A stretch of DNA of 64,000 nt from a phage: NCBI GenBank assembly GCA_018175075.1, contig GCA_018175075.1_4100.1. One strand, written 5' to 3'. The number at the start of each line of letters is the position of its first letter. Position 1 is the stretch's first letter. Below the pieces are notes generated by a model that had not been told where the DNA came from, did not search any database, and saw only the letters and a list, made by a program, of their open reading frames with translations. Shown in pieces: positions 39,551 through 59,238 of the stretch. Position numbers and translations under genes: made by a program.

Positions 39551-39819
39551 TAATATGAACAGTACTGATATTAACAGAATGGTGTCAGTACTGATTTTAA
39601 TTTAATGCATTATGCCACCAGCACAAGCTGGTGGATTCCCTCTAACAGTATTCAGTACTACATGATGGTCTTCATCCTCCTAGGGTAACATAGTGAGGGC
39701 TATGATGGCAGTACTGAATACTCCCTTTCAAAAGATAGATCTATGGTATAGTACTGACGGATTTTGGGCGTAGTTACCCTGGATGGATTTTGGGCGTAGA
39801 TATGTCTAGCCCTCCAGAA

Positions 39820-39950
39820 GTCTGGAAGTAAAGATGGCTATCCATCTAGACGGCTAAACGGCTAGATTTCTGGATGGCTGGATGGCTAGACGTTTGGACG
39901 GCTAAACGGCTAGATGGTTACACGTCTGGAAGTATAGACGGCTAAATCAA
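39820..39950 (+). repeat. iteron-like direct repeats
   Basis: GACGGCTAAACGGCTAGAT x2 (39849, 39897) + GACGGCTAAAT (39938); GGATGGCT x3; GTCTGGAAGTA x2; A/T tract follows. Confidence 0.6.
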
Positions 39951-40094
39951 AATTTTATTTTGTTTTTTCCAATAGTTCCCCTACCGCGTGGGGATAGTTT
40001 CCCCGCAGTATCTGGTGTTAGATTTTTCTGAATCTGGAATCATTATCTTATAAACTGGGGGCAATGTCAACGGCCTGGACGGATATTTTTAAAA

Positions 40095-40195
40095 ATTTTT
40101 TCAGTACTGAATTTTGGGCGTAACTATGCACCCGGTGGGCTGGAGTCTTTCTCGACTTGATGGAACTATTATACAGTACTGGAAAAATAAAGCAA
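40095..40195 (-). ncRNA. GGGTGC-core promoter-proximal RNA element, copy 1 (with promoter)
   Basis: TTGCTT-N16-TATAAT then ..GUCGAGAAAGAC..AGCCCACCGGGUGC..UACGCCCAAAAU. Confidence 0.35.
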
Positions 40196-40319
40196 TACCC
40201 TGGATGAAAAAAGTTTTAATTAATTTGCTTGCCATCCTGGGCCGGACTATGGTACTATAATTCAGTACTGAGAAAGTGCGTTAACCTGCTAGGGTGCGGG
40301 AGTGTATCCTTTTTTTATA

Positions 40320-40410
40320 TCTTGAATTTTGGGCGTAATTCCGCACCCTCTGGGGTTTCCGCTTTCTCGCGTCTATGTAGTAATTATACGCTTTTTCAGG
40401 ATCAAGTCAA
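40320..40410 (-). ncRNA. GGGTGC-core RNA element, copy 2 (with promoter)
   Basis: TTGACT-N16-TATAAT then ..CGCGAGAAAGCG..CCCCAGAGGGUGC..UACGCCCAAAAU. Confidence 0.35.
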
Positions 40411-40561
40411 TACCTAAAAACAAATAATTGAAAATAATTTAACGCGTTTAAACGGCCCGTAACGCCCTGGAATGATTAGAATGGTGCAAATGTATAGCTT
40501 AGGTGTATTAATGCGTTAGAATGCGTCTGAGGCCGTTTTATGGGGTGTAGTAGTGATTTGG

Positions 40562-40654
40562 TTGATTCAGTACTGAATAATAGTACTCCTATATAGAAAG
40601 ATAGTTCCCCTGGATTGATTCAGTACTGAATAATAGTACTCCTATATAGAAAGA
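40562..40654 (+). repeat. tandem direct repeat, period 53 bp
   Basis: TTGATTCAGTACTGAATAATAGTACTCCTATATAGAAAGA at 40562 and 40615. Confidence 0.7.
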
Positions 40655-40685
40655 AAACTATTTTAAAAGTACATGTAGAAAGTAC

Positions 40686-40745
40686 TTGCACCGTACTGAT
40701 AAAAGCGTATAATGTTTTACATCGAGAGCGGGAACACTTCCCGCT
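40686..40745 (+). promoter_or_regulatory. mini-gene promoter + 5'UTR hairpin unit
   Basis: AGTACTTGCAC..TATAATGTTTTACATC + AGCGGGAA-CAC-TTCCCGCT. Confidence 0.6.
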
Positions 40746-40768
40746 ACACTTTAAAAGAGATGAAAACG

Positions 40769-41131
40769 ATGGCGACTCAAATCAATAAAATCATGCTTAA
40801 CCTGGTAAACTTCCGCGATGAGATGAAAGGTCTTCCGGCTGAAACTGTAAAAATTCACATTGCAGCTTATCGGGAACTTATTGCAATGTTGCCGCTTAAG
40901 CGTGAACAATACGCCGCTACTTTGATGCTGGATTCAATGATCCATGTAATGATCTCAAATGATTTAACGATGGTTTATCAGTACATGGGAGAAAATTTCG
41001 CGGTGTGTAGTAAGCCAGTACCAGGGATGGCAACTACTGAGGAATTGCACGGTTTAAATTTAAAGCAAGATGCATGGGATAATATGCCTCGTTTCCTGGT
41101 ATGGGCTGACAGTGGCAAAATTTACAAATAA
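40769..41131 (+). CDS. hypothetical protein
   Basis: 120 aa from MATQINK; the track start 40712 lies inside the -10 box. Confidence 0.6.
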   Translation: MATQINKIMLNLVNFRDEMKGLPAETVKIHIAAYRELIAMLPLKREQYAATLMLDSMIHVMISNDLTMVYQYMGENFAVCSKPVPGMATTEELHGLNLKQDAWDNMPRFLVWADSGKIYK

Positions 41132-41145
41132 GTTTAATAAAGTAC

Positions 41146-41204
41146 TTGCAAACTATGTTTAATGGCGTATAATGTTTTACATCAGGTGGGGAATAGTTCC
41201 CCAC
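41146..41204 (+). promoter_or_regulatory. mini-gene promoter + 5'UTR hairpin unit
   Basis: TTGCAA-N16-TATAATGTTTTACATC + GTGGGGAA-TAG-TTCCCCAC. Confidence 0.6.
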
Positions 41205-41224
41205 TATATAAGAGGATTAAAAAA

Positions 41225-41464
41225 ATGGCTAAATCAAAAATGTTCTTAGGTCACAAAAACAAAACTCATTGGAATGTAAGCCTGTGGATTAATAACGATG
41301 AGGGATTGTATCGGTTGGCCCTGGATTTTATTAACGACAACACTAATCGCAATGATGCGGCCCGTCATATGATGTTATTTTTAGAACAGACTGGACAAGA
41401 TAAAACACCGGACGGATTCAAATATAGCACTACTGCGATCCGTGCGGCGATGGTTGGAATGTAA
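41225..41464 (+). CDS. hypothetical protein (paralog of 43265..43504)
   Basis: MAKSKMFLGHKNKTHWNVSLWINNDEGLY...TPDGFKYSTTAIRAAMVGM. Confidence 0.7.
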   Translation: MAKSKMFLGHKNKTHWNVSLWINNDEGLYRLALDFINDNTNRNDAARHMMLFLEQTGQDKTPDGFKYSTTAIRAAMVGM

Positions 41465-41554
41465 TAGAATAGAATTTATTTAAAGTACTATCGCAAAAAA
41501 TGATAGTACTTTATAATAGTGTTTTATTCATACACCAACGATAAGGGCAACAGC

Positions 41555-41818
41555 ATGAATATTAAGTATTTTGCGACGCGTGAACAAGCTCGGATCGCTG
41601 CACGCCAGGACGGGGCAACGTTTAAAGATATGGGCGTACAATCGGAACGTGGTAAACGTTGGGCCATTGTAAAGCGTAGTACCGCCAGATCATTACAGTA
41701 CTGGTTAGCGGCCTTAAAAAGTCCCGATAGTGTATCGCGTCGAGTGGTAGAAATAAAGCTCGACCGAAAGGGCAACCGCGTGACCGTGTACCGTACTAAA
41801 AAGATTGCAGTACTATAA
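41555..41818 (+). CDS. hypothetical protein (paralog of 54831..55226)
   Basis: MNIKYFATREQARIAARQDGATFKDMG...DRKGNRVTVYRTKK. Confidence 0.65.
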   Translation: MNIKYFATREQARIAARQDGATFKDMGVQSERGKRWAIVKRSTARSLQYWLAALKSPDSVSRRVVEIKLDRKGNRVTVYRTKKIAVL

Positions 41819-41826
41819 AAAAGTAC

Positions 41827-41885
41827 TTGCAAACTCTGTTTAATGGCGTATAATGTTTTACATCGAGAGCGGGAACACTTCCCGC
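41827..41885 (+). promoter_or_regulatory. mini-gene promoter + 5'UTR hairpin unit
   Basis: TTGCAA-N16-TATAATGTTTTACATC + GCGGGAA-CAC-TTCCCGC. Confidence 0.6.
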
Positions 41886-41906
41886 CTATAACCTGGAGTA
41901 ATAAAA

Positions 41907-42137
41907 ATGACTAATATGTATATGACTGAAGTTAAAACCGTAAAAGATACTACCACAAATAAAGTTACTTACTTACAGCGGATCTGTGGTGTATGGCAAC
42001 GTATCAGCAAATCAAAGTACTATAAATTAACATCATATGCAAACCGTTCTGATTCATTCAGTACTGAAATAAAAGGTAATAAAGTACACCAATACGGCAC
42101 TTATTATTATTACAGCCTGGACGCGATTGCAGTATAA
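41907..42137 (+). CDS. hypothetical protein
   Basis: 76 aa; promoter + GCGGGAA/TTCCCGC hairpin + GGAG SD. Confidence 0.65.
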   Translation: MTNMYMTEVKTVKDTTTNKVTYLQRICGVWQRISKSKYYKLTSYANRSDSFSTEIKGNKVHQYGTYYYYSLDAIAV

Positions 42138-42167
42138 GCAGTTTACAAATCTTTACAATTGCCGGTA

Positions 42168-42260
42168 TTGACTTATTTTGTCAGTACTGGCATAATGTAT
42201 TCATTGGCAGATAAGCCGTAGCCCATAGGGTGCGGGAGTGTATCTATAGAAAAATTAGTT
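42168..42260 (+). ncRNA. GGGTGC-core RNA element, copy 3 (with promoter)
   Basis: TTGACT-N17-CATAAT then ..GGCAGAUAAGCC..GCCCAUAGGGUGC. Confidence 0.35.
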
Positions 42261-42340
42261 TAGTATAGTTACAATTGTGCACCCGGTGGGTTAGCTGTTG
42301 TCATGGGGTATATTATGCCAGTACTGGATAGTGCTGTCAA
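42250..42340 (-). ncRNA. GGGTGC-core RNA element, copy 4 (with promoter), convergent with copy 3
   Basis: TTGACA-N17-CATAAT then ..ACCCACCGGGUGCACAAUUGUAACUAU. Confidence 0.35.
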
Positions 42341-42384
42341 TACTTTTTTAATATTCAGTACTGAAAACTATTTTTAAAAAGTAC

Positions 42385-42530
42385 TTGCAAACTATGTTTA
42401 AAGGCGTATAATGTTTTACATCAGGACGGGGAACGAAATAAGTAACTTCCCGTTAAGTAGCCCAGGAGTAAGGCACACGAAAAACTCCCCTGATAAAATA
42501 GTTTGACAATTGTTTTTAAAAGCGTATAAT
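42385..42530 (+). ncRNA. conserved ~80-nt leader RNA L1 between tandem promoters
   Basis: TTGCAA..TATAAT, AUCAGG..ACGGGGAA/UUCCCGU..UAAGUAG..GGAG/CUCC..CCUGAU, then TTGACA-N16-TATAAT. Confidence 0.4.
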
Positions 42531-42562
42531 ACTTACATCAACTACTGAATGAGGGTTACAAA

Positions 42563-43174
42563 ATGAAAACTATCACTACTACTACTTTCGTTATGGATTT
42601 TTCTGAATTGAACGCAGAACAAAAAACGTCAGCTATCGAACTGGTTCGGGAACGTGAAAAAAACTCAAACGACAATTATTTTTCTGAAAGTGAAATTGAA
42701 TACTATAAAGAAACAGTACTACCGGAATATGGCATTAATGACGCTGAAATACAATTCAGTGGCTTTTGGTCCCAGGGTGACGGTGCATCAATCAGTACTG
42801 ACCACGTTGACGCAGTGAAGTTTTTACGCAAGGTAAGAGCATTAACTAAGTATCGCTCAATCCGTCACCTGCTGAATGAAGATGATTTGGCGATGAGTGT
42901 AAAGCGTTCGCACTCCCACTACTCGCATGAGAATACTGTAAGCGGGTACATTGAATCGGCTTACACTGATTTAACCGCAAAACAAGAAACGTTAGTTAAT
43001 GAGCTTGAGGAACTACTCACTGAAACTATTCGTGAATTGTCCCGCAAGTTGTACCGTGATTTAGAGAATGCATATGAGGATCAATTCACCACTGAAAACA
43101 TTACGGCACTGATTGAGGGTAACGAATATCAATTCAATGTTATTGATGGCGTAGTAGAATCAATCGAATATTAA
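42563..43174 (+). CDS. hypothetical acidic protein
   Basis: 203 aa; FSGFWSQGDGASI motif; tandem promoters + conserved leader upstream. Confidence 0.7.
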   Translation: MKTITTTTFVMDFSELNAEQKTSAIELVREREKNSNDNYFSESEIEYYKETVLPEYGINDAEIQFSGFWSQGDGASISTDHVDAVKFLRKVRALTKYRSIRHLLNEDDLAMSVKRSHSHYSHENTVSGYIESAYTDLTAKQETLVNELEELLTETIRELSRKLYRDLENAYEDQFTTENITALIEGNEYQFNVIDGVVESIEY

Positions 43175-43185
43175 TTTAAAAAGTA

Positions 43186-43245
43186 CTTGCAAACTAAGTT
43201 TAAAAGCGTATAATACTTTATATCGAGGCGGGGAATGGTTCCCCG
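43186..43245 (+). promoter_or_regulatory. mini-gene promoter + 5'UTR hairpin unit
   Basis: TTGCAA-N16-TATAAT + GCGGGGAA-TGG-TTCCCCGC. Confidence 0.6.
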
Positions 43246-43264
43246 CTCAAACGAGGATTTAAAA

Positions 43265-43504
43265 ATGGCTAGTACTAAAACTTACAACGGTCACAAAAAC
43301 AAAACTCATTGGAATGTAAGCCTTTGGATTAATAACGGTGAGTCATTGTATCGGCTTGCTCAAAGTTGCATCGCACAAAGTAGAACTAAAGATATTGCTG
43401 CGGAATGTATGTACCGCAGATTAAAAGCCAACGGTACTACTACAACGCCGGACGGCTTTAAGTATAGCACTACTGCGATCCGTGCTGCAATGGTTGGAAT
43501 GTAA
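43265..43504 (+). CDS. hypothetical protein (paralog of 41225..41464)
   Basis: MASTKTYNGHKNKTHWNVSLWINNGESLY... Confidence 0.7.
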   Translation: MASTKTYNGHKNKTHWNVSLWINNGESLYRLAQSCIAQSRTKDIAAECMYRRLKANGTTTTPDGFKYSTTAIRAAMVGM

Positions 43505-43561
43505 TATTCAGTACTGAGATAATGGCGGGGAATGGTTCCCGCCTTTACTGAGGGTTATCTA

Positions 43562-43849
43562 ATGAGTAAAGTAATAAAGTACAATGTGTTAAGTAAATCA
43601 TTGTCTATCAGTGAATGCACCGATGGTTTTTGGATGTACGATGAAACGCGTGGCATGAATTTAGCTATGCGTGCAAAAACTGCTGAGGCGGCGTATATTC
43701 AAGCACTGGAATACTACCAGGAACGTTTAAAGGAAGTAGAAGAAGATTATAAAAGCCTCAAAGCGAAAGTAGATCATTTCGTCGGTCAATTCGTGGAAGA
43801 CAACGACGAGGACGGGCACTACTGCGACCGTTGCGGATCTTACAGTTAA
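43562..43849 (+). CDS. hypothetical protein
   Basis: 95 aa; leader hairpin GGCGGGGAA/TTCCCGCC; GAGGG SD. Confidence 0.65.
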   Translation: MSKVIKYNVLSKSLSISECTDGFWMYDETRGMNLAMRAKTAEAAYIQALEYYQERLKEVEEDYKSLKAKVDHFVGQFVEDNDEDGHYCDRCGSYS

Positions 43850-43866
43850 GTACTAAGGATTATATA

Positions 43867-44079
43867 ATGAGTGATTTAATTGAACGTATCAAAGAGCTTG
43901 AAGAAAAAGAATTGCAGTTGATCGGGTTACGGAATAAAGTATTCCATGATTTAGGTGGCTTTATTAATGCCTGGGATAGTGGCGATCCTGATGCGTTACC
44001 TGCTAACCGCCAGGCGATGATCAATGATGTGCGTGGTGTCTTTGAGTATGTTTTAAAAGTACTAGACACTAAGCAATAA
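43867..44079 (+). CDS. hypothetical protein
   Basis: 70 aa from MSDLIERIKE; AAGGA SD. Confidence 0.6.
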   Translation: MSDLIERIKELEEKELQLIGLRNKVFHDLGGFINAWDSGDPDALPANRQAMINDVRGVFEYVLKVLDTKQ

Positions 44080-44140
44080 AGGCGTATAATACTTTATATT
44101 GGTACTGACAAACATTATAAGCGATTCAGGAGCTTTAATC

Positions 44141-44326
44141 ATGACAACATTATCTGAGGTTATCCGCGTTCAAGCTGCAAAGGCTGGAATGACTGTTATC
44201 AATGTAGGGATCAAGATTGAGATCTCCCCTAACGAGTTGCAAGGGATTCCCGATCCTACTAGCTGGGATCGTGCTGGGCGAATGATGCGTAATGCTTCAT
44301 TACTGGACGGTACAAAATTTAATTAA
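44141..44326 (+). CDS. hypothetical protein
   Basis: 61 aa from MTTLSEV; AGGAG SD. Confidence 0.6.
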   Translation: MTTLSEVIRVQAAKAGMTVINVGIKIEISPNELQGIPDPTSWDRAGRMMRNASLLDGTKFN

Positions 44327-44333
44327 AAAGTAC

Positions 44334-44392
44334 TTGCAATTAGTTTTTAGTACTGTATAATGGTTTACATCAAAGGGAGAAATGGTTCTCCC
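44334..44392 (+). promoter_or_regulatory. mini-gene promoter + 5'UTR hairpin unit
   Basis: TTGCAA-N16-TGTATAAT + GGGAGAA-ATGG-TTCTCCC. Confidence 0.6.
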
Positions 44393-44411
44393 TGGTAATG
44401 AGGAAAATAAA

Positions 44412-44633
44412 ATGGCTAATATCACTACTCTTTCCCAACTGGAAGCACTGGTTAAATCTATGCGGGAACATGCCGACAAAATCGGCGTACAAGATCCAGC
44501 CGTTTGCTTCTGCGACGAAATGAATGATGATACACTGGTAATAGCAGAAGTCCAGGACGTTTCTAACTATTCCTCGCGTTACACTGGCGGCGTAGCAAAT
44601 AAAGGTGACTTCTGTTTATACCTTACAAAATAA
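44412..44633 (+). CDS. hypothetical protein
   Basis: 73 aa from MANITT; promoter+hairpin; terminator follows. Confidence 0.65.
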   Translation: MANITTLSQLEALVKSMREHADKIGVQDPAVCFCDEMNDDTLVIAEVQDVSNYSSRYTGGVANKGDFCLYLTK

Positions 44634-44638
44634 CAACG

Positions 44639-44668
44639 CGGGGAGATAATAACTCCCCGTTACTTTTT
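44639..44668 (+). terminator. intrinsic terminator
   Basis: CGGGGAG-ATAATAA-CTCCCCG + TTACTTTTT. Confidence 0.6.
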
Positions 44669-44768
44669 CAGTACTGAATCATTTAATAGACGGATCTCGG
44701 CACCCGGTGGGTTAGTGACTGTTTCGTCTTGATGTAGTAATTATGCCAGTACTGGATGCACTTGTCAA
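44639..44768 (-). ncRNA. GGGTGC-core small RNA candidate, copy 5 (promoter to hairpin)
   Basis: TTGACA-N17-CATAAT (44763-44740); ..GACGAAACAGUC..ACCCACCGGGUGC..; ends at CGGGGAG/CTCCCCG hairpin. Confidence 0.4.
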
Positions 44769-44876
44769 CAACTATTTTTCAAATACTTTTTATTAAAATA
44801 CTTGCAATTAGTTTTTAAACGCGTATAATGTTTTGCATAGGGGGAGCGGTTCCCCTGGTAACTAAGGAATAATAAA

Positions 44877-45113
44877 ATGCTTGAACAAATCAAATCAACG
44901 TCTGCGAATGTAACGGGAACGGTAGCACACTTTACTAGTGATGAATCGCGGGGCGTTCCCTATTGTGCTGTACATGTAAACACTGAGGGTAACTACTGGT
45001 TTACGGTTTACGGATCATATTCATTTGGACGGCCTGGACATCAAAAAATTCTGGATAAAGTACAGCCAACGGGTAAAAATATCACTGCTGAAATGTTTTA
45101 TAAAAAATCATAA
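44877..45113 (+). CDS. hypothetical protein
   Basis: 78 aa; promoter+hairpin+AAGGA SD. Confidence 0.65.
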   Translation: MLEQIKSTSANVTGTVAHFTSDESRGVPYCAVHVNTEGNYWFTVYGSYSFGRPGHQKILDKVQPTGKNITAEMFYKKS

Positions 45114-45198
45114 AGTACTTGATAATAGTTTTTAGTACTGTATAATATTTTACATCGCAAGGGGGGAGCGGTTCCCCCTGGTAACTAAGGATAATCAA

Positions 45199-45498
45199 AT
45201 GAAAATTGCAATCATCGCCCTGGCTTTATCTGTTTCCTCTTTCGCTGTTAATGCGTCGTTAGATGTAAGTAGTGAAAAATTCATTCAGTGCACTGTAGCG
45301 ATGACCAATGAAAGTACTGGCGAGATTGTTTTAAAGGATTTAGAGATCCAGCCAGAAGCATTTAAAAACGGGCCGTTCCATGAAGAAGACGAAAAAGGTA
45401 GCACGACAATTTATTACGATGCAAGTACTAAACGCGGTTCGGTCACTGTTATGGATACTGAGAAAGTAACGCATTCCGGCGTTATTAATTGCCGTTGA
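45199..45498 (+). CDS. secreted small protein, two-Cys type
   Basis: signal peptide MKIAIIALALSVSSFAVNAS; FIQCTV...GVINCR. Confidence 0.65.
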   Translation: MKIAIIALALSVSSFAVNASLDVSSEKFIQCTVAMTNESTGEIVLKDLEIQPEAFKNGPFHEEDEKGSTTIYYDASTKRGSVTVMDTEKVTHSGVINCR

Positions 45499-45519
45499 TA
45501 GATACTACGGGGTAACATC

Positions 45520-45750
45520 ATGACTAAGCGAATTGTTTTACTTAACGAAAGCAGTACTACACAACTACTTAACGCCGTGCATTATGATATTGAAACGAGC
45601 GTTAATCTTATCAGTACTGTAGTACTGTTGGACACTGGAAAGGTCGCCAATGATAAAGCGATTGCAGGTATATTAACGGATCTTGAGCCTGGTAGCAGTG
45701 CACCAATAACGTTAAATGGTAAAGTGTTTAATATTTTACTCACTGATTAA
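45520..45750 (+). CDS. hypothetical protein
   Basis: 76 aa; followed by strong terminator. Confidence 0.6.
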   Translation: MTKRIVLLNESSTTQLLNAVHYDIETSVNLISTVVLLDTGKVANDKAIAGILTDLEPGSSAPITLNGKVFNILLTD

Positions 45751-45756
45751 GTACAT

Positions 45757-45779
45757 AGCCCACCTGGTGGGCTTTTTTG
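45757..45779 (+). terminator. intrinsic terminator
   Basis: AGCCCAC-CTG-GTGGGCT + T6. Confidence 0.7.
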
Positions 45780-45867
45780 TTTTTGTAGTATCGTAGTACT
45801 GAGATACTTTGAAAATAGTTTTAAAAAAATAGTTGACATTACCGCAAAAAGGCGTAGAATATATTAC

Positions 45868-45940
45868 ATCAAGACGGGGAGCACTAAGTAGACCGCCAGT
45901 AAGTCGAACGAAAAACTGGACACGTCGAGAAAACTTTGAT
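45868..45940 (+). ncRNA. leader RNA L3 (diverged copy)
   Basis: AUCAA-GACG..UAAGUAG..CCAGU-loop-ACUGG..CGUC..UUGAU nested pairs after TTGACA-N16-TAGAAT. Confidence 0.35.
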
Positions 45941-45983
45941 ACACTAATAAACGTAAACTAAACTTTAATTGAGGATTTATAAA

Positions 45984-46466
45984 ATGGCTAATGTAAAATC
46001 ATTCATCAAAGCACTGGTAGCAAATGAAACTAACGTCGCGGCTGAGATCCTGGCTGAACTGGATAACGATACCATGAAAGCGGTACGCAATAATTTTAAC
46101 ATCGCTTACAGTACTGCGAAAGAACTACAAGCAAATAAAGCGGCAGAAATTGAAGCGGCAAAGGCGGCCCGTGAAGCAGAACTACAAGCAACAATTGAAA
46201 GTATTCAGGCGGCAGTAGTTGGATTGGATCTGGAAGTAGTTACAGAGATGGCACAAAAAGCCCTGGCGAAAAAGTACGGTGAAGATAAGCCAGAAGTAAA
46301 AGCTAAAAAATGGATTCAAGAACGTGTAGCGGTAGTACTTGATAACGGGGAAGAATATCTGATTCCGGTGCGTGGTAACTGCATTGCGGTAGTACTGGAT
46401 GCGATTAACTCCAGTGGTATGACTCGCGAGGAATGGATCGAAGCTCATCGCAAAGTTGAAGCATAA
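45984..46466 (+). CDS. hypothetical Ala/Glu-rich helical protein
   Basis: 160 aa from MANVKSF; GAGGA SD; ~110-nt structured leader. Confidence 0.65.
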   Translation: MANVKSFIKALVANETNVAAEILAELDNDTMKAVRNNFNIAYSTAKELQANKAAEIEAAKAAREAELQATIESIQAAVVGLDLEVVTEMAQKALAKKYGEDKPEVKAKKWIQERVAVVLDNGEEYLIPVRGNCIAVVLDAINSSGMTREEWIEAHRKVEA

Positions 46467-46487
46467 CAATTAAAGTACTGAATCATT

Positions 46488-46514
46488 AGCCCACTTATAC
46501 AGTGGGCTTTTTTG
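46488..46514 (+). terminator. intrinsic terminator
   Basis: AGCCCACT-TATAC-AGTGGGCT + T6. Confidence 0.7.
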
Positions 46515-51135: not shown

Positions 51136-51139
51136 TCTA

Positions 51140-52410: not shown

Positions 52411-52437
52411 TATTAATTTAATAGAGGATAACAATAA

Positions 52438-52761
52438 ATGTACATTCATACTACTATCACAAAGGAAGTCCGTTGCCAGTTCGAAAGTATTCCGGGCGTA
52501 TGTTTCATCACTGGTACGTTTTCCCCTGGTGATCGTGATAATCCAGTACTGTTACAATTACGCCATCCATCATGGGATAAAGCATTTGATCTACCGTTGA
52601 ATGAATTCGCAACTACTGCTGAAAAGTACATTAAAAATATTCGCGAGAATGATCGACTATTCATTAATGCTTTTAGTGATTCCGCGTTAAGCGAGATCCA
52701 CGGTGTATTGGTTGCAATCATGGAATCAATGGAGAAAACTAAATTCAAACAAGGTGAATAA
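52438..52761 (+). CDS. hypothetical protein
   Basis: 107 aa; AGAGGA SD. Confidence 0.65.
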   Translation: MYIHTTITKEVRCQFESIPGVCFITGTFSPGDRDNPVLLQLRHPSWDKAFDLPLNEFATTAEKYIKNIRENDRLFINAFSDSALSEIHGVLVAIMESMEKTKFKQGE

Positions 52762-52844
52762 AAACTATTGACAAGATAATCTAGTACTGTATAATAAGTT
52801 ACATGAAGGGGAGAAATGATTCTCCCCACTGAGAGGAAAGAAAA

Positions 52845-53057
52845 ATGCAAGGTCAACTAATCGTTCGTAAATGGTCTGATACTAACGCTAAACCGTGGGA
52901 TGTACAATACATCGGCCCCAATGGTGAATCCAGATATCAACCAGGTGTAACGCATAGTACTGAGCAATTCGCCGCCGCTCATCGTGAACGTCTGTTACAA
53001 TCAATGCAGCAAGGTTCCGGTGAAAAATTCATTCAGGATCATTGGCTGAAAGATTAA
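52845..53057 (+). CDS. hypothetical protein
   Basis: 70 aa; promoter+hairpin+GAGAGG SD. Confidence 0.65.
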   Translation: MQGQLIVRKWSDTNAKPWDVQYIGPNGESRYQPGVTHSTEQFAAAHRERLLQSMQQGSGEKFIQDHWLKD

Positions 53058-53143
53058 AAAGTACTTGCACAGTACTGAATAAAGTGTATAATGTTTTATA
53101 TCGGAAGGGGAATAGTTCCCCTCCCAACAAAGAGGAAAGTATA

Positions 53144-53317
53144 ATGATCCAAGTAGAATTATCAGTACTGAAAGATCTGTTTTATCGGTTAGGTACTAAT
53201 GGCGAGTATCCTAAAAGTGATACCGCAAAACTTTTTGTATCACTCGACTTATGGCAACGCGAACAATTAGTAATGTCCTGGCGTAAAGGTAAAGCAGATC
53301 GCGAGGTGAAAGCATGA
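53144..53317 (+). CDS. hypothetical protein
   Basis: 57 aa from MIQVELSVL; promoter+hairpin. Confidence 0.55.
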   Translation: MIQVELSVLKDLFYRLGTNGEYPKSDTAKLFVSLDLWQREQLVMSWRKGKADREVKA

Positions 53318-53463
53318 AAGAATTCTTATTCGAAGTAGTGTTTCAAGGTGTCGGTAGTAACCAACTGATTCGATCAAGTGGTTACAATGTCAACCAGGCA
53401 TGGAATAACATTAAACAAATGTACCCGAACGCTATCACCTATCGCAACCCGAAAGAAGTTTAA
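53314..53463 (+). CDS. 49-aa small protein
   Basis: ATGA coupling; MKEFLFEVVFQGVGSNQ... Confidence 0.45.
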   Translation: MKEFLFEVVFQGVGSNQLIRSSGYNVNQAWNNIKQMYPNAITYRNPKEV

Positions 53464-53477
53464 AAATAATTGAAAAA

Positions 53478-53560
53478 GGGATTGACTCCGGTCAGTCCCT
53501 TTGCTATTATATACGCATAGAAACAAATCAGCCCACCGGGTGCATAAATGTATCTATTGT
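53478..53560 (+). promoter_or_regulatory. fused terminator-promoter hairpin + GGGTGC-core element, copy 8
   Basis: GGGATTGAC-TCCG-GTCAGTCCC; TTGACT-N17-TATTAT; ..GCCCACCGGGUGC.. Confidence 0.55.
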
Positions 53561-53600
53561 TTGCTGGTGGCTAGTACTGAAAACTATTTTAAAAAAGTAC

Positions 53601-53744
53601 TTGCATTGTACTTAGAATAAAGTATAATGTTTTACATCAGGACGGGGAACGAAACAAGTAACCCCGTTAAGTAGTCCAGGAGTAAGACATACGAAAAACT
53701 CCCCTGATAAAATAGTTTGACAATAGAAAGTAAACGAGTATAAT
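53601..53744 (+). ncRNA. conserved ~80-nt leader RNA L2 between tandem promoters
   Basis: near-copy of L1 with ACGGGG/CCCCGU stem variant; downstream gene unrelated to that of L1. Confidence 0.4.
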
Positions 53745-53777
53745 ACTCACATCAACCACTGATAAGGAAACATAAAA

Positions 53778-54053
53778 ATGCGGATTCTACTGACAGCTAA
53801 CGAAATCGAACAAGTACTGACTACTAACCTGGAAGACTGGAAACGTGAAGCAGATATCCAGGCGGTTCAACAGCTTAACGATGAGTTAACGCCGGATGAC
53901 TTAAGCAAGATTGTAGATCCTCAATTCTACGAAGATATCCACGACACCGCGTTAAGCGTCGAGGATGTACTAGATAAGCACTACATTGATATTGATTTGC
54001 AGGTTTACGGTCGTAAAAACTTTATCACTATTCACGACATTTACAATAATTAA
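53778..54053 (+). CDS. hypothetical acidic protein
   Basis: 91 aa; tandem promoters + conserved leader upstream. Confidence 0.65.
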   Translation: MRILLTANEIEQVLTTNLEDWKREADIQAVQQLNDELTPDDLSKIVDPQFYEDIHDTALSVEDVLDKHYIDIDLQVYGRKNFITIHDIYNN

Positions 54054-54056
54054 GTA

Positions 54057-54118
54057 TTGACAAAGTATCTTAGTACTGTATAATAGTTTACATCGAGTGA
54101 GGGGAAACGGTTCCCCTC
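54057..54118 (+). promoter_or_regulatory. mini-gene promoter + 5'UTR hairpin unit
   Basis: TTGACA-N16-TGTATAAT + GAGGGGAA-ACGG-TTCCCCTC; near-identical copy at 54328-54390. Confidence 0.6.
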
Positions 54119-54141
54119 CTAACAAAGAGAGAGAAATAAAA

Positions 54142-54324
54142 ATGGCTAAGTGCACTATCTGCAAGAAAGAAATAGTATTAGTTCCAAGTGCCCGTGAACG
54201 TGCCGCTCGGTTCGGTGGCAAAGCGTCAGACTATACAAAAATGTTTACTACCCATGCAGCTTGCCAGGTAGCAAAACGTTCACAAGAAAGCGTAGAATTA
54301 ATGCGTAAACTTTCCAAAAAATAA
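54142..54324 (+). CDS. small Cys-containing protein (possible Zn ribbon)
   Basis: MAKCTICKKEIVLVP...THAACQV; promoter+hairpin. Confidence 0.6.
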   Translation: MAKCTICKKEIVLVPSARERAARFGGKASDYTKMFTTHAACQVAKRSQESVELMRKLSKK

Positions 54325-54411
54325 GTATTGACAAAGTATCTTAGTACTGTATAATAGTTTACATCAAGTGAGGGGAATGGTTCCCCTCCTAACTAAAAGA
54401 GAGAAATAAAA

Positions 54412-54735
54412 ATGGCTATGATCCTTGCCCAGAAAGTAGAATTGAAAATTGTAACCTCATTTGACATTAACGTTAATCGGTGGACTGATTCACACGGCAA
54501 TACTTACCACTCTTGCTACGTGTCTGCGTTAATTGGCGACCGCTGGGAAGACCTGGGACATGAAACCTTTACATACGGTTACGGCACACAAGGCGAATAC
54601 ACGGGCTTGGAGATCATTAAAGAAACCGTTATAGGTTTCAACCCGAAAGAAAAAGTTATTCACCAAATCGAAAAAGAGATTAACAAAGAAATAACAGTTC
54701 GATACAACGATGTAAAACGTAAGAAAGACATGTAA
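54412..54735 (+). CDS. hypothetical protein (paralog of 47590..47913)
   Basis: NRWTDSHGNTYHSCYVS...FTYGYGTQ...VKRKKDM. Confidence 0.7.
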   Translation: MAMILAQKVELKIVTSFDINVNRWTDSHGNTYHSCYVSALIGDRWEDLGHETFTYGYGTQGEYTGLEIIKETVIGFNPKEKVIHQIEKEINKEITVRYNDVKRKKDM

Positions 54736-54830
54736 TAGAATCCATTTAAAGTACTATTTGACATTGCCCAGATAGTACTTTATAATAGACTCTAACTTGT
54801 AGTACTAACTTAACTAATAGGATGTATACC

Positions 54831-55226
54831 ATGATTACTAAATTCTACGCTACCCGTGAAGCTGCCCGTATTGTTGCACGCGAGGAAGGAGCAGCATTTA
54901 AAGACATGGGCAAAGATGCACCGAAAGGCCAACGCTGGGCCGTACAGTTCAAAGAGATCTCTGATATTGTGAATTCACCTGAGCCAGTACTAACAGCAGC
55001 AGAACTAAAACGAGCGGATATGCTGGCGGCAATACTTGACGCACAAGATGAGTTTATCGCTGGTTCTGATATCAAAGTACAGGTAAACCACACCGCATGG
55101 ACTCACGCGGATCACCTGGCAAACCTTAAGCGTCCAAGTGAACTGATTCGCAACCAGAAAGAGATCCGACATGATCGTAAGGGTAATCGTGTAACAGTAT
55201 ACAGTAAACGCCGCCAGGTTATCTAA
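54831..55226 (+). CDS. hypothetical protein (paralog of 41555..41818)
   Basis: MITKFYATREAARIVAREEGAAFKDMG...DRKGNRVTVYSKRR. Confidence 0.65.
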   Translation: MITKFYATREAARIVAREEGAAFKDMGKDAPKGQRWAVQFKEISDIVNSPEPVLTAAELKRADMLAAILDAQDEFIAGSDIKVQVNHTAWTHADHLANLKRPSELIRNQKEIRHDRKGNRVTVYSKRRQVI

Positions 55227-55248
55227 TAACTTGCAGTACTAACAACAC

Positions 55249-55273
55249 GGCGGGATCAGTTCCCGCCTTTTTT
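55249..55273 (+). terminator. intrinsic terminator
   Basis: GGCGGGA-TCAG-TTCCCGCC + T6. Confidence 0.7.
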
Positions 55274-55287
55274 ATAGGACAAACAAA

Positions 55288-55542
55288 ATGATTAAGGTTC
55301 AACTATATAAAGATAACATCTTACGGGTACACTATAAAGCACCTCAGAGAATCATCACAAAGGCCGTACAGCTTGCTAATGAGTTTATTAATGGTAACCT
55401 ATTACCTAGGAAGTTAAGCAACGGGAAACTGCGTGTAATCGACGTGGACACTAACAACAGGATAGTAATCGAGAACACAGGAAAGATAAACCTTTATGAG
55501 CATCAACAATACAATAAGAAAATAAAACTAATATCACGTTGA
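55288..55542 (+). CDS. hypothetical protein
   Basis: 84 aa; follows terminator at 55249. Confidence 0.6.
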   Translation: MIKVQLYKDNILRVHYKAPQRIITKAVQLANEFINGNLLPRKLSNGKLRVIDVDTNNRIVIENTGKINLYEHQQYNKKIKLISR

Positions 55543-55595
55543 CAGTACTCAAATGTTTTAGTACTATGTACACATACCAACACGGGAGAAACAAA

Positions 55596-55814
55596 ATGAA
55601 ATTATCTAAAATCGAAAAGAAAACTATTGATGAAGCAGTTAAGCACGGTTATACCTTTCGTAATGATTCACATTTTACCAATTTTCAACAAGGGTATCGT
55701 ACTATTAAAAAACTAATTGACAAAGGTTTATTAGTTGAAGTCAATAACGGTAACGGTATCGAGTATCAACCAACACAAGACGCATTTTATTTTAAGAAAT
55801 ATAATATTATCTAA
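55596..55814 (+). CDS. hypothetical protein
   Basis: 72 aa from MKLSKIEKK; TTGACA-N17-TACTAT promoter at 55540. Confidence 0.6.
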   Translation: MKLSKIEKKTIDEAVKHGYTFRNDSHFTNFQQGYRTIKKLIDKGLLVEVNNGNGIEYQPTQDAFYFKKYNII

Positions 55815-55872
55815 TTGACAGTACTCAAATGTTTTAGTACTATATGTACATACCAACACGGGGAGAAACAAA

Positions 55873-56115
55873 ATGATTACTTTAGAAAAACGTATCAAAG
55901 AAACTACATCGCTGGTGGAACTGTTAACAGTACTGAAATGTAAAACAACACCATTCAGCACGCCGGACTTTATTAATATGGTTGATGTTAATGGTCGCTA
56001 TCGTATCACGGTCGTGAATGGTGCGGCGAAAGTATTCAGTACTAAAAACACTAAGGAAGTGATCCACGCCGTTAATGTTAAAAAAGTAGTTGCCATTGAT
56101 AGTAAAGTACTGTAA
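55873..56115 (+). CDS. hypothetical protein
   Basis: 80 aa; near-identical copy of the 55540 promoter upstream. Confidence 0.6.
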   Translation: MITLEKRIKETTSLVELLTVLKCKTTPFSTPDFINMVDVNGRYRITVVNGAAKVFSTKNTKEVIHAVNVKKVVAIDSKVL

Positions 56116-56146
56116 GATAGTTTCATTAACTCAAGGAGTAAATGCA

Positions 56147-56731
56147 ATGCGTAATTATACTAAATTCATCCGTACACTGTCAGAAATGGAAACCAACAAA
56201 GAGATCCTTTCAGCTTGTCGGTTAGCTGGCCTGGAGATCATCGGGGCGGGATCTTCCCGTATAGTTTTCGCTTTAAATGATCGGTTAGTGATTAAGGTCG
56301 CGAATTGTGATGCGGGTGTAGAACAAAATGAAACTGAATGTAAGGTATGGAATTTTTTAGACTATGACCGCCCTCAGTTGAAACAGTACTTTGCAAAGGT
56401 GCATATGCATTTATGCGATCCTGATAATATGTTTATCGTTATGGATCGGTTGAGTACTGCAAGCAAAGGCAGTGTGAAGCACGTTAACGCGTGCAATGAA
56501 TTAAAGTACAATATTAAACGTAATGCAATCGAACGCCAGCACCGCTTTGCTGATGCACTACAACACGTTGATGATACATTATCAACACTAACGATAAGAG
56601 ATATCAGAAAACAGAATATCGGCCAGGATCGTAATGGACTTATTAAAGTACTTGATTACGGTTTAACCCGCAATATCTGGAATCAGTACTATAAAAAGCG
56701 TGATGTAGCAGCAAGTAAGGTAACACGATAA
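56147..56731 (+). CDS. protein-kinase-like protein (mini-kinase 3)
   Basis: IIGAGSSRIVF...LVIKVA; RDIRKQNIGQDRNGLIKVLDYG; AAGGAG SD. Confidence 0.55.
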   Translation: MRNYTKFIRTLSEMETNKEILSACRLAGLEIIGAGSSRIVFALNDRLVIKVANCDAGVEQNETECKVWNFLDYDRPQLKQYFAKVHMHLCDPDNMFIVMDRLSTASKGSVKHVNACNELKYNIKRNAIERQHRFADALQHVDDTLSTLTIRDIRKQNIGQDRNGLIKVLDYGLTRNIWNQYYKKRDVAASKVTR

Positions 56732-56745
56732 AAAAGATTAAAAAA

Positions 56746-56832
56746 GGGATTGACTCCGGTCAGTCCCTTTGCTATTATATATTCATTGAGAGATAACTCA
56801 CTGACCCATAGGGTGCATAAGTGTATCTATTA
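56746..56832 (+). promoter_or_regulatory. fused terminator-promoter hairpin + GGGTGC-core element, copy 9
   Basis: same hairpin; TTGACT-N17-TATTAT; ..UGAGAGAUAACUCA..ACCCAUAGGGUGC. Confidence 0.55.
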
Positions 56833-56953
56833 TATAAGTATTCAGTACTGGAAACTATTTTTAAAAAGTACTTGCATTGTACTTAGAATCAAGTATAATG
56901 TTTTATATCGAGAGGGGGAAATGGTTCTCCCTGGTACATTAAGGAATAAAATC

Positions 56954-57175
56954 ATGACTACAATGACTTGCATTCACGCTTCAAACCTGCTTAATGATGC
57001 GGCCTTTAATGTTGATTCAGAATATCAATGTTATCGGGATGAAAATAAAAAAGTTTTTGTAGTTGATAATAATGGTTTCCATATTGAATTACAATCCGGC
57101 TTCACTGGTGTTGATGGTAAATCAGTATGGGGCGTACAGGATGATAAAGGTACATATCATTTTAAACGTAATTAA
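56954..57175 (+). CDS. hypothetical protein
   Basis: 73 aa from MTTMTCIH; the long track ORF runs through the regulatory module. Confidence 0.6.
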   Translation: MTTMTCIHASNLLNDAAFNVDSEYQCYRDENKKVFVVDNNGFHIELQSGFTGVDGKSVWGVQDDKGTYHFKRN

Positions 57176-57261
57176 GTATTGACAAAGTATATCAGTACTG
57201 TATAATAGTTTACATCAAGGGGAGAATAGTTCTCCCCACACCAATAAAAGGAAACAAAATT

Positions 57262-57534
57262 ATGTCCAGCTACTCCGCTACTATGATCATTAAAGATATG
57301 AACGGTAATCCTACTTCTGCTGGTGGATCATTTGGAAACATTAATTTAGATGGTCGGTTATCCATGCAATCAGCCATTGATGCAGCTAAAGAAGTTTTTA
57401 AGAATGAATGTACTGTAAGCAAGCTGGATTATATGGGATTCGCTATCGAGAAAACTAATCGTTTTGTGAACTACAAAAAGCCTATGATGATTGATACTAA
57501 CCTGAAAGCTAACGAAGTGGAATACTTATTATGA
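57262..57534 (+). CDS. hypothetical protein
   Basis: 90 aa; promoter+hairpin. Confidence 0.65.
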   Translation: MSSYSATMIIKDMNGNPTSAGGSFGNINLDGRLSMQSAIDAAKEVFKNECTVSKLDYMGFAIEKTNRFVNYKKPMMIDTNLKANEVEYLL

Positions 57535-57722
57535 CAGTAGAAGAAGTTAAAAAAGTACTGGCAGTACTACGCTATCATAATCATTGTAAGGTGAAGAATG
57601 ATCCTGATTATCTTGATTCATCCCTGGAGGAAGACACCTTAAACGCGATAAGCTATATGCAAACATTAGCAAAGCGTATGACCGAAAAGAATAGGCCGGA
57701 CTATATAGGAAATAAAATTTAA
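57531..57722 (+). CDS. hypothetical protein
   Basis: 63 aa; ATGA coupling. Confidence 0.6.
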   Translation: MTVEEVKKVLAVLRYHNHCKVKNDPDYLDSSLEEDTLNAISYMQTLAKRMTEKNRPDYIGNKI

Positions 57723-57809
57723 AAAGTACTTGCATTGTAGTTAGATTAACGTATAATGTTTTATATCGAGAGGGGGAAATGGTTTCCCCTCAAGTCCAGG
57801 AGATACACC

Positions 57810-58073
57810 ATGAACACTATCGAAATCACTATCAATGCACACGTATACGACAACGTAGTACTGCAAACTACTATGACCGCTAATGATACCAGTACTTTGC
57901 GGAATACTGTTATTAGTGCCGTATGTGCTGCAATCGGTGATGTCGCCCTGGAAAATGCAAAACACGTAAACGATGGTTTCACTATGTGCAAACGTGATAA
58001 CGCAAAACATATCATCGTGGAAGGTTACGGCGGTGTAGAATTTAATGTTTATATGAAAAAAGTACTTGCATAA
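57810..58073 (+). CDS. hypothetical protein
   Basis: 87 aa from MNTIEITI; 3' end (KKVLA*) overlaps the next -35. Confidence 0.65.
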   Translation: MNTIEITINAHVYDNVVLQTTMTANDTSTLRNTVISAVCAAIGDVALENAKHVNDGFTMCKRDNAKHIIVEGYGGVEFNVYMKKVLA

Positions 58074-58140
58074 TAACTAAAACAAAGTATAATGTTTTGC
58101 ATAGGGGGAGATATCCTCCCCCACTAAAAGGAGTAATAAA

Positions 58141-58365
58141 ATGGCTAACTTTGATGAACTGATGCGGGAAGTAGCTACCCTGGCAGAAGAGAAGAAATCA
58201 TTCGATTCTATCTATAACACCGCTCACCGTGATTCAGTACTGGCATGTACTCAGGATCAAAAAGATGAACTAATCGCCACCTATCATGAAGCATGGAAGT
58301 ACTACCGCCAATGGGAGAAAGAAGAAAGCGAGTCTACCATCAACGGCATCAATAATCTAATCTAA
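58141..58365 (+). CDS. hypothetical protein
   Basis: 74 aa; promoter+GGGGGAG/CTCCCCC hairpin. Confidence 0.65.
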   Translation: MANFDELMREVATLAEEKKSFDSIYNTAHRDSVLACTQDQKDELIATYHEAWKYYRQWEKEESESTINGINNLI

Positions 58366-58371
58366 AAGTTT

Positions 58372-58425
58372 TATTTCAGTACTATTGACATAGCTTGATA
58401 GTACTGATGTAATAACTTTACTAAC
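58372..58425 (+). repeat. type-2 promoter repeat (variant)
   Basis: ..TCAGTACTATTGACATAGCTTGATAGTACTGATGTAAT. Confidence 0.55.
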
Positions 58426-58441
58426 TACAAGGGGAAACATC

Positions 58442-58699
58442 ATGGAACAATTCACACAATATCGGGTAAATCCTCAAGCTATGGCCTACGTAGAAGACCA
58501 TAAAACGTTACCAGTACTGCAACCAGTTAAAGGCCATATCTATCGTGGCCTTGCCTGGGATACGGCCCAGGATGGATATAAAACCGTCGCAGTGGGGATG
58601 TATTGCGGGAATGGTGAATGGTTTGATCCTAACAATCCGATTGCACTTGACAGTACTGAAAAAATGAAATGGGCCGACTACATCGAAGATATTTCATAA
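58442..58699 (+). CDS. hypothetical protein
   Basis: 85 aa; type-2 promoter repeat upstream. Confidence 0.6.
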   Translation: MEQFTQYRVNPQAMAYVEDHKTLPVLQPVKGHIYRGLAWDTAQDGYKTVAVGMYCGNGEWFDPNNPIALDSTEKMKWADYIEDIS

Positions 58700-58789
58700 A
58701 AACTATTTGACAGTACTAACCAGTAATGTATAATGTTTTACATAGAGCGGGGGAATAGTTCTCCCGCCAATAGTTTGGAGTAAAACATT

Positions 58790-58990
58790 ATGTCTATCGC
58801 TATCGCCCTGGTTGAAGTACTGAAAGAAGCTAAAGCCAACCTTATCGATGTACAGATTAAGGAATTGCAAAACGGCTTAATCGGCTGTACTTGTACCGCT
58901 GGCGGTGCGGCAGACTATCGAGAACACGAATCACTCGAATCACTGGTTCGGTATCTTACCATGATCGTTGATGATTGGAGAATCATCTAA
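58790..58990 (+). CDS. hypothetical protein
   Basis: 66 aa; promoter+hairpin. Confidence 0.6.
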   Translation: MSIAIALVEVLKEAKANLIDVQIKELQNGLIGCTCTAGGAADYREHESLESLVRYLTMIVDDWRII

Positions 58991-59009
58991 CAAAAAAAGA
59001 ATAAAAAAA

Positions 59010-59090
59010 GGGATTGACTCCGGTCAGTCCCTTTGCTATTATATACGCATAGACAAAAACTAGCCCACAGGGTGCATAAGTGTATCCAAA
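59010..59090 (+). promoter_or_regulatory. fused terminator-promoter hairpin + GGGTGC-core element, copy 10
   Basis: same hairpin; TTGACT-N17-TATTAT; ..UAGACAAAAACUA..GCCCACAGGGUGC. Confidence 0.55.
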
Positions 59091-59238
59091 ATATATAGTT
59101 AATAACGGTGAGTAACTATCTGCTGGTGGAGTGAAAACTATTAATAAAAAAAAGTATTGACAAAGTATATCAGTACTGCAATAATGTATCTCGTAGGGCG
59201 GCAATGGTGCGACGGCCCACAAAGTTAGGAGATTCAAA

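Follow-up and report, generated by a model that had tools for sequence, protein, structure and literature searches.

Why does one segment of a jumbo phage genome hold so many copies of the Chi octamer, which is recognised by the bacterial enzyme RecBCD? The question is raised by a 64,000-nucleotide stretch of phage DNA (GenBank assembly GCA_018175075.1, contig GCA_018175075.1_4100.1), here called the window, in which Chi, 5'-GCTGGTGG-3', is clustered in a block from 39.6 to 59.2 kb. An earlier examination of the window (the original prediction) had reported the cluster and interpreted it as protection of exposed DNA in an enteric host. Its observation is confirmed and extended here, and its interpretation is partly supported. 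The block lies within a long direct terminal repeat (DTR), and the Chi sites may have been selected there for a part in recombination between the two copies of the repeat.

The window contains 15 exact copies of GCTGGTGG, ten on the (+) strand (13407, 39627, 46595, 50854, 51364, 52315, 53563, 55911, 57319 and 59122) and five on the (−) strand (27458, 27716, 27971, 39615 and 46533). The original prediction listed eight (+) copies, seven of them in the block; all of the coordinates it gave are correct, and the copies at 52315 and 55911 had been missed. The block therefore holds nine (+) and two (−) copies. The excess that it had noted stands, as dinucleotide shuffles of the window gave a mean of 0.69 copies and a maximum of five, and none of 100 shuffles reached 15. 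On the (+) strand of the block, the nine copies compare with 0.17 expected under an order-2 Markov model. By the same model, Chi ranks 24th among all 8-mers, and every 8-mer above it belongs to a set of overlapping words from one of two motifs: the palindrome CAGTACTG or a consensus of early promoters, AGTACTTGCA...GTATAATGTTTTA. The three (−) copies between 27.4 and 28.0 kb had been attributed to the codons of a Gly-rich gene, and they do represent Ala-Gly-Gly codons in a 245 aa Gly-rich open reading frame (ORF) on the (−) strand (27400-28137). This ORF is within a (−)-strand block, and RCC1-like repeat genes adjoin it in related records.

The phage from which the window derives belongs to Asteriusvirus (121Q/PBECO4/G17 group), which are E. 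coli jumbo phages of about 350 kb. The records nearest to the window are those of E. coli phages, in agreement with the enteric host that had been predicted. In the closest record, CRJP21 (GenBank accession number OQ708376.1; 366,301 bp), the region of interest matches two places, and positions 1-20152 and 346150-366301 of that genome are the same sequence (0 mismatches), i.e. a direct terminal repeat of 20,152 bp. In fENko-Kae01, a repeat of 19,736 bp is found at both genome ends, also with 0 mismatches. Experimental termini have been published for fEgEco12, G17, XbC2 and PA5oct. The fEgEco12 paper reports a DTR of 20,993 bp that was found using PhageTerm and confirmed by restriction mapping, and a redundancy of ~20 kb was seen by coverage in G17. 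When the DTR ends of CRJP21 and fEgEco12 (first 400 nt and last 40 nt) are mapped to the window, they fall at 39039 and 60453-60492, respectively, with identical end sequences. The window termini used here are placed by the match to fEgEco12. The window thus includes one DTR copy and both of the flanking unique junctions, and all 11 Chi copies of the block are inside the DTR. The identity of the block as a DTR, and with it the presence of the same array at the left end of the genome, had been missed in the original prediction. Its proposal that exposure of the DNA begins at the right-hand side of the map does fit well, as the right terminus is found 1.36 kb beyond the last Chi.

The DTR and the Chi sites in it are as follows.

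39039-60492, no strand: long DTR of 21,454 bp, present as a single copy in the assembly and bounded by a left terminus at 39039 and a right terminus at 60492.
39615-39634, no strand: two Chi in inverted orientation, CCACCAGC-ACAA-GCTGGTGG, at a distance of 577 bp from the left terminus, with the (−) arm facing the left end.
46533-46540, (−) strand: second left-facing Chi, paired with 46595 and kept in CRJP21 and fEgEco12.
46595-46602, (+) strand: right-facing Chi, intergenic.
50854-50861, (+) strand: right-facing Chi, intergenic, sharing bases with the 3' arm of a hairpin that resembles a terminator (AGCCCAC...GTGGGCT).
51364-51371, (+) strand: right-facing Chi, intergenic by ATG-ORF prediction, in a segment that is missing from CRJP21.
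52315-52322, (+) strand: right-facing Chi in a 64 aa ORF, phase 0 (Ala-Gly-Gly).
53563-53570, (+) strand: right-facing Chi in the variable slot of a repeated intergenic module.
55911-55918, (+) strand: right-facing Chi in an 80 aa ORF, phase 2 (Leu-Val).
57319-57326, (+) strand: right-facing Chi in a 90 aa ORF, phase 0 (Ala-Gly-Gly).
58898-58905, (+) strand: decayed Chi, GCTGGCGG, for which the ortholog is an intact GCTGGTGG in CRJP21 (18560) and fEgEco12 (19402).
59122-59129, (+) strand: right-facing Chi closest to the right terminus (1,363 bp), intergenic, in the variable slot of the module.

A genome-wide count and the position of the sites relative to the genome termini had been proposed as checks, and both place the enrichment in a single segment, the genome terminus. 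In CRJP21, the DTR includes nine (+) and two (−) copies of Chi, with 0.14-0.33 and 0.03-0.08 expected, and the remaining 325,997 bp include nine (+) and five (−) copies, with about five and three expected. The density in the DTR is 12.7-fold that in the rest (p=2e-7). fENko-Kae01 is a Klebsiella phage with ~29 % genome similarity, and its DTR has 12 (+) and two (−) copies compared to 12 (+) and six (−) in the remaining 320,633 bp, a 12.6-fold difference in density (p=2e-9). No other 20-kb window of either genome holds more than four copies. In fEgEco12 (10 (+) and two (−) in the DTR), Muenster, an Alcyoneusvirus (seven (+) and one (−)), and XaC1 (nine (+) and three (−) in a DTR of 32,031 bp), the sampled flanks of 19, 20 and 18 kb, respectively, contain no Chi. 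In XbC2, seven (+) and two (−) copies are found in the 17,581-bp DTR, and one (+) and two (−) in the other 52.5 kb.

An excess confined to the DTR is thus seen in five diverged lineages (fEgEco12, Muenster, fENko-Kae01, XbC2 and XaC1), each with 7-12 (+) and 1-3 (−) copies where <0.5 are expected. When the five DTRs are pooled (110 kb), there are 45 (+) copies and 10 (−) copies, with 0.93 and 0.27 expected, respectively, which is about 50-fold above composition. The pooled density is 0.50 per kb, compared with 0.217 per kb in E. coli. In all five lineages the density steps from about 0.5 per kb to about 0.04 per kb exactly at the boundary of the duplicated DNA, and this step is the cleanest natural 'experiment' of its kind so far. 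That the enrichment is real, and that it is DTR-specific, we hold with very high confidence.

Whether the exact octamer is selected was examined using several controls. The 7-12 exact Chi counted per DTR compare with 0.14-0.6 predicted by Markov models of orders 1-4, and with only 3-6 when all 24 one-mismatch neighbours are summed. Among the 8-mers that are enriched in fEgEco12, Muenster and fENko alike, Chi is the sole one outside the AGTACT and promoter families. About half of the Chi sites are intergenic, compared to ~30 % of the DTR DNA, and the coding copies occupy all three phases (AGG, WW and LV). The Asteriusvirus sites are orthologous, and the octamers are kept amid flanks of 87-95 % identity. 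Given the local identity, the ten octamers held in common would all be intact with a probability of about 0.03. The losses are one point mutation in the window (58898, GCTGGCGG) and one indel in CRJP21. The DTR of the Pseudomonas phage PA5oct (39,080 bp, early-transcribed, 36.5 % GC) has no GCTGGTGG on either strand, and GCTGGTGG is not a Chi in Pseudomonas. An origin in codon usage or composition was rejected, as the neighbours are not enriched, all phases are used and PA5oct has none. An origin in repeats was also rejected, because the contexts of the sites differ and the two of four paralogous modules that carry Chi do so via different changes. Judged by these counts, composition, codon usage and hitch-hiking on repeats are rejected as causes of the Chi excess.

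A Chi excess that arose without selection in a DTR that is richer in G+C, and in G on the coding strand, and that contains repeated modules is therefore a very improbable explanation, despite some features that fit it. The G+C content of the DTR is 4-9 points above that of the flanks, the strand ratio follows composition, two of the sites are in paralogous modules, and Gly-rich codons account for the three (−) copies that lie beyond the DTR. However, the Markov predictions, neighbours that are not enriched and site contexts that are unrelated all argue against it, as does the lack of Chi in PA5oct, which is of similar composition and architecture.

The orientation of the sites can be read relative to the termini. 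RecBCD recognises 5'-GCTGGTGG-3' solely when coming from its right, and Chi is active in all enterics tested. Because recognition requires this approach, (+) Chi face the right terminus and (−) Chi the left, and in the window nine (+) sites face the terminus at 60492 and two (−) sites that at 39039, the nearest being 1,363 and 576 bp away, respectively. In every lineage the nearest right-facing Chi is 375-1,363 bp from the right end and is backed by a further 6-11 copies. With 30 % recognition per site, the probability of RecBCD passing all of the right-facing Chi is 1-8 %. In three of the five lineages (Asteriusvirus, fENko and XbC2), the left end has a left-facing Chi at a distance of 215-577 bp. 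Both orientations are enriched, by 20-60-fold.

The (−) copies at 39615 and 46533 had been described as partner arms of inverted repeats, and they are indeed inverted partners of (+) copies, with arms of 8 and 9 bp. The description of these copies as mere hairpin partners is too narrow, as in three of the five lineages a (−) copy 0.2-0.6 kb from the left terminus is directed towards it. The pair at 39615/39627 forms a perfect 8-bp stem with a 4-nt loop (-15.7 kcal/mol), and the 9-bp arms at 46533/46595 are 54 nt apart. Neither pair belongs to a longer inverted repeat. The left-terminal CCACCAGC-N4-GCTGGTGG arrangement is homologous in fENko-Kae01, where the loop differs and both arms are kept, and the left-terminal sequence together with the Chi hairpin is conserved in 34 records (composite query). 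Scans of the window for transfer RNAs (tRNAs) and Rfam families gave no matches, so the Chi hairpins do not correspond to any known RNA gene.

On this evidence we favour, with some reservation, the explanation that Chi is selected in the terminal repeat and that RecBCD entering at a terminus would be switched to RecA loading and recombination between DTR copies. Linear virion DNA, or the ends arising in replication or packaging, would expose a double-strand end to the host RecBCD. On entering at the terminus, the enzyme would degrade only redundant DNA before meeting one of the 7-12 right-facing Chi, where it would change over to making a 3' tail that is coated with RecA and terminates within the DTR. 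This tail would then invade the other DTR copy, in the same or a sister molecule, and the outcome would be a circle or a concatemer with one DTR per junction and the unique sequence intact. Confinement of Chi to the repeat would follow, since the repeat is the one part of the genome with a second copy from which resected DNA can be restored. Searches with phmmer for lambda Gam, T7 gp5.9 and T4 gp2 found no homologue in CRJP21, fENko-Kae01 or the window, though novel inhibitors may exist among the genes, most of which are functionally unassigned; the positive controls T4 gp4, gp5, gp1 and gp53 were found. Nor was any RecBCD-inhibitor or end-protector family detected among the 51 DTR ORFs using Pfam and PHROG.

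A stronger version, for the whole clade (Asteriusvirus, Alcyoneusvirus, Mimasvirus-like phages and relatives), is offered tentatively, and we consider it less probable than not. In it, the DTR would be a sacrificial buffer armed with Chi, and RecBCD resection followed by Chi-triggered RecA loading would be the obligatory first step in circularising or concatenating the 350-kb genome before UvsX/UvsY are expressed. If this were true, the host 'anti-phage' nuclease RecBCD would be a required host factor for these phages, and the great length of the repeats would be accounted for.

Several observations weigh against the recombination explanation. The left end has only 1-3 correctly oriented Chi, and in XaC1 and Muenster the first of these is 5.4-6.5 kb in. 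The pooled strand ratio of 29:5 (three lineages) equals the prediction from coding-strand composition (p+ 0.71-0.86). Hence, the co-orientation of the sites, which had been taken as evidence in the original prediction, does not serve as such, and selection for co-orientation is unsupported. The excess of Chi needs selection; its co-orientation does not, because the strand ratio is that expected from composition. The Asteriusvirus sites being orthologous, the window, CRJP21 and fEgEco12 represent one lineage. The fENko-Kae01 record annotates a RecA (ENKO_307), a UvsY (ENKO_308) and several nucleases, and CRJP21 also lists recombination proteins, under labels that are unreliable; this is from annotation only, and the lack of a Rec module that characterises the Chi-rich lambdoid LLS class (see below) does not apply to the jumbo phages. 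PA5oct has a DTR that has not gained the Pseudomonas octamer, GCTGGCGC, indicating that the strategy is not universal, and as a control PA5oct is phylogenetically distant. XbC2 and XaC1 were propagated on Xanthomonas, yet retain GCTGGTGG. Finally, we infer both the action of RecBCD on these ends and any need of the phages for RecBCD or RecA from sequence.

The last two phages also bear on the host. Since these two relatives carry the same array, the rule underlying the original prediction, that Chi implies an enteric host, is unsafe. Their reported hosts are Xanthomonas vesicatoria (65 % GC), and the phages are 35-37 % GC. XbC2 has been reported to share >50 % similarity with Cronobacter, Erwinia and Serratia phages, and it is plausible that the octamer is retained in XbC2 and XaC1 via ancestry or that there is an unrecognised enterobacterial host. 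We note that the concentration of Chi in XbC2 1-17581 and XaC1 1-32031 raises the question of the natural host or of the Xanthomonas Chi. In XacN1, a bona fide Xanthomonas phage, Chi is about 2-fold, which was counted as no enrichment and is uninformative.

Two further explanations accept selection on the octamer. In one, Chi would do no more than attenuate the RecBCD nuclease within an expendable repeat, and the ends would be joined by the phage's own recombination or replication machinery; a by-product would be less RecBCD-dependent acquisition of CRISPR spacers from the entering end. The enrichment and the terminal geometry fit this equally, and host-driven recombination may be unnecessary in a phage group that has its own RecA/UvsX-UvsY and nucleases. 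However, papers from the Smith laboratory indicate that the effects of Chi on DNA survival generally need RecA, and that Chi is a recombination activator rather than a simple stop. The confinement of Chi to a duplicated segment is also more natural if the second copy is used for repair. We regard protection alone, which is how the original prediction read the cluster, as unlikely. The two roles are inseparable by sequence, and this applies equally to the protection of exposed DNA in the original prediction, for which the enzyme system and the exposed side do fit.

In the other, which we judge to be improbable, the octamer would have a role independent of RecBCD, perhaps as a site at which a phage or host protein binds during packaging, the initiation of replication, DNA entry or early transcription, and its identity with Chi would be coincidental or secondary. 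The retention of the octamer in XbC2 and XaC1 grown on Xanthomonas is the main point in favour of such a role, though enterobacterial ancestry can explain this. The equal enrichment of both orientations, the conserved hairpin of two octamers near the left terminus and the lack of a switch to the Pseudomonas octamer in PA5oct are also in its favour. However, the sites have no common flanks, are irregularly spaced (0.2-7 kb) and are found both between genes and in all coding phases, which would be unusual for a binding array tied to transcription. Among 65,536 octamers, it is improbable that chance would yield exactly the host Chi in every lineage, and XacN1 is without enrichment. Recombination between the repeats, initiated by RecBCD at Chi, remains the explanation we prefer.

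The DTR appears from its sequence to be an early region made up of small (+) genes and transcribed by host RNA polymerase. Two of its features are listed here.

40681-59606, (+) strand: array of early promoters, small genes and terminators filling the DTR, with matches to host-type promoters.
56090-56731, (+) strand: protein-kinase-like gene with a weak Pfam Pkinase match, a DTR marker that is conserved across the phage group.

There are 17 matches to AGTACTTGC-N15-19-TATAAT (0.01 expected) and 11 perfect matches to the sigma-70 consensus, TTGACA-N16/17-TATAAT, all on the (+) strand and inside the DTR. For PA5oct, RNA sequencing has shown that the DTR genes are early. Using the kinase-like gene in tblastn searches, matches were found inside the annotated DTRs of vB_Ec-M-J, fENko-Kae01 and Muenster. 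Among the 51 DTR ORFs (for example, 51465-51722, 51772-52143 and 56090-56731), the Pfam matches are limited to a ParE-like toxin, a DksA/TraR zinc finger, a GNAT acetyltransferase, the weak protein kinase and several domains of unknown function, and the PHROG matches are exclusively to families without an assigned function. The CRJP21 product labels were not used as evidence; they appear to be offset from the genes, as in a 'terminase large subunit' of 100 aa, a 'DNA ligase' of 75 aa and a 'topoisomerase II large subunit' of 97 aa.

An intergenic module of about 230 bp is present in four copies (49480-49700, 53475-53700, 56743-56960 and 59007-59240), in each of which a hairpin with a 12-bp stem (AAAGGGATTGACTCCGGTCAGTCCCTTT) is followed by GCCCACNGGGTGC, then by a slot of variable sequence and lastly by an early promoter. 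Seven copies of GCCCACNGGGTGC are present in the window (≤1 mismatch; 0.05 expected), all within the DTR and on both strands. Chi is present in two of the four modules (53563 and 59122), where it was created by different sequence changes. These two sites had been reported to have the same position after a GGGTGC element; they do share the variable slot, but are 19 nt and 46 nt after GCCCACNGGGTGC.

The G+C content of the DTR exceeds that of adjacent unique DNA in every lineage examined, by 4-9 percentage points (for example, 0.385 vs 0.324 and 0.358 vs 0.272). No 8-mer in the window is more over-represented than the palindrome CAGTACTG, the core of which is AGTACT, with 38 copies in 39039-60492 (about 1.4 expected) and 26 in 1-39038. 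It is also strongly enriched in the DTRs of Muenster (61), fENko (13) and XbC2 (28), and is often found shortly downstream of Chi or upstream of promoters. The right termini of five lineages (60453-60492 in the window) share the pattern CTRT...TAAAGG...CT, and the Asteriusvirus left terminus (39039-39060) opens with a small inverted repeat, GGCAGA-GGAAG-TCTGCC. Both are candidate terminase recognition or cutting signals.

A search of the accessible literature found no paper that ties Chi or RecBCD to these jumbo phages or their repeats, and no report of their growth being enhanced by or dependent on RecBCD or RecA. The fEgEco12 paper discusses circularisation through the repeats and does not discuss Chi. 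A dependency of this kind, predicted here for RecBCD and RecA, would be relevant to phage-therapy candidates in the group. The Chi array also provides a practical marker for the physical termini in the many Asteriusvirus records that were deposited without them, and its proposed role offers a functional rationale for the 17-32 kb terminal repeats of jumbo phages.

Among known systems, proteins such as T4 gp2, lambda Gam and T7 gp5.9 address the same problem, namely linear phage ends exposed to RecBCD. However, they cap the ends or inhibit the enzyme, whereas the array described here is a cis-acting DNA element that would exploit it. T5 resembles the jumbo phages in having a non-permuted long DTR that is packed with small early genes and strong host-type promoters, and PhageTerm assigns XbC2 and XaC1 to the class 'long DTR, T5 type'. 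Two-step (first-step-transfer) DNA entry is a feature of T5, and the jumbo phages are likened to it by repeat and genes alone. In T5 (GenBank accession number AY543070.1), the only two Chi in the first 45 kb, at 8127 and 8689, are both on the (+) strand and inside the 10.2-kb left terminal repeat, near the injection-stop-signal end. According to the literature, the density in this repeat is about the genome average. With two sites in 10.2 kb and a similar density genome-wide, T5 was rejected as a precedent for Chi in long DTRs.

The closest parallels are with P1 and its relatives and with the Chi-rich lambdoid LLS class. In P1, P7 and D6, Chi is concentrated where the terminal redundancy falls, and circularisation by RecBCD and RecA has been proposed (Subramaniam & Smith, bioRxiv 10.1101/2021.07.08.451572; Zheng et al. 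2025, PMC12315714). The octamer is the same, and the densities are similar, about 2.5 times that of E. coli (0.50 per kb in the DTRs and 0.53 per kb in P1). As in the DTRs, the P1 sites are concentrated in the terminal redundancy, are equally frequent inside and outside coding sequence and have no link to the CTG|GTG frame, and the role proposed is recombination between terminal repeats. However, P1 is temperate, 95 kb in length and packaged by the headful from pac, with the redundancy spread over 20-40 kb, and its Chi, on both strands, show a graded density across much of the genome. It also has Cre-lox. In contrast, the jumbo phages are virulent, ~350 kb in length and have fixed ends, their Chi stop sharply at the DTR boundaries, and they encode their own recombinase. 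The need for RecBCD and RecA in cyclisation was shown experimentally in P1 and is inferred from sequence in the jumbo phages.

The LLS class (Zheng et al. 2025, PMC12315714, in which Bobay et al. 2013 is cited) likewise has a Chi density about 2.5 times that of E. coli, and LLS Chi are terminally clustered and co-oriented. It has no recognisable RecBCD inhibitor, and the homology searches described above detected none in the jumbo phages. LLS phages differ in that they are without a Rec module, have cohesive ends and no long repeat, and carry Chi genome-wide with enrichment in the last 22 %, whereas the jumbo phages have UvsX/UvsY-type genes and Chi confined to a duplicated terminal segment of 17-32 kb. 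The Chi-rich phages that exploit RecBCD have so far been only temperate lambdoid or P1-like phages, and the jumbo phages would extend the principle to large virulent phages with fixed ends. The principle itself is known from P1 and the LLS class; what is new is that Chi is sharply confined to a long DTR with fixed ends, and this in jumbo phages that are virulent and have their own recombinase.

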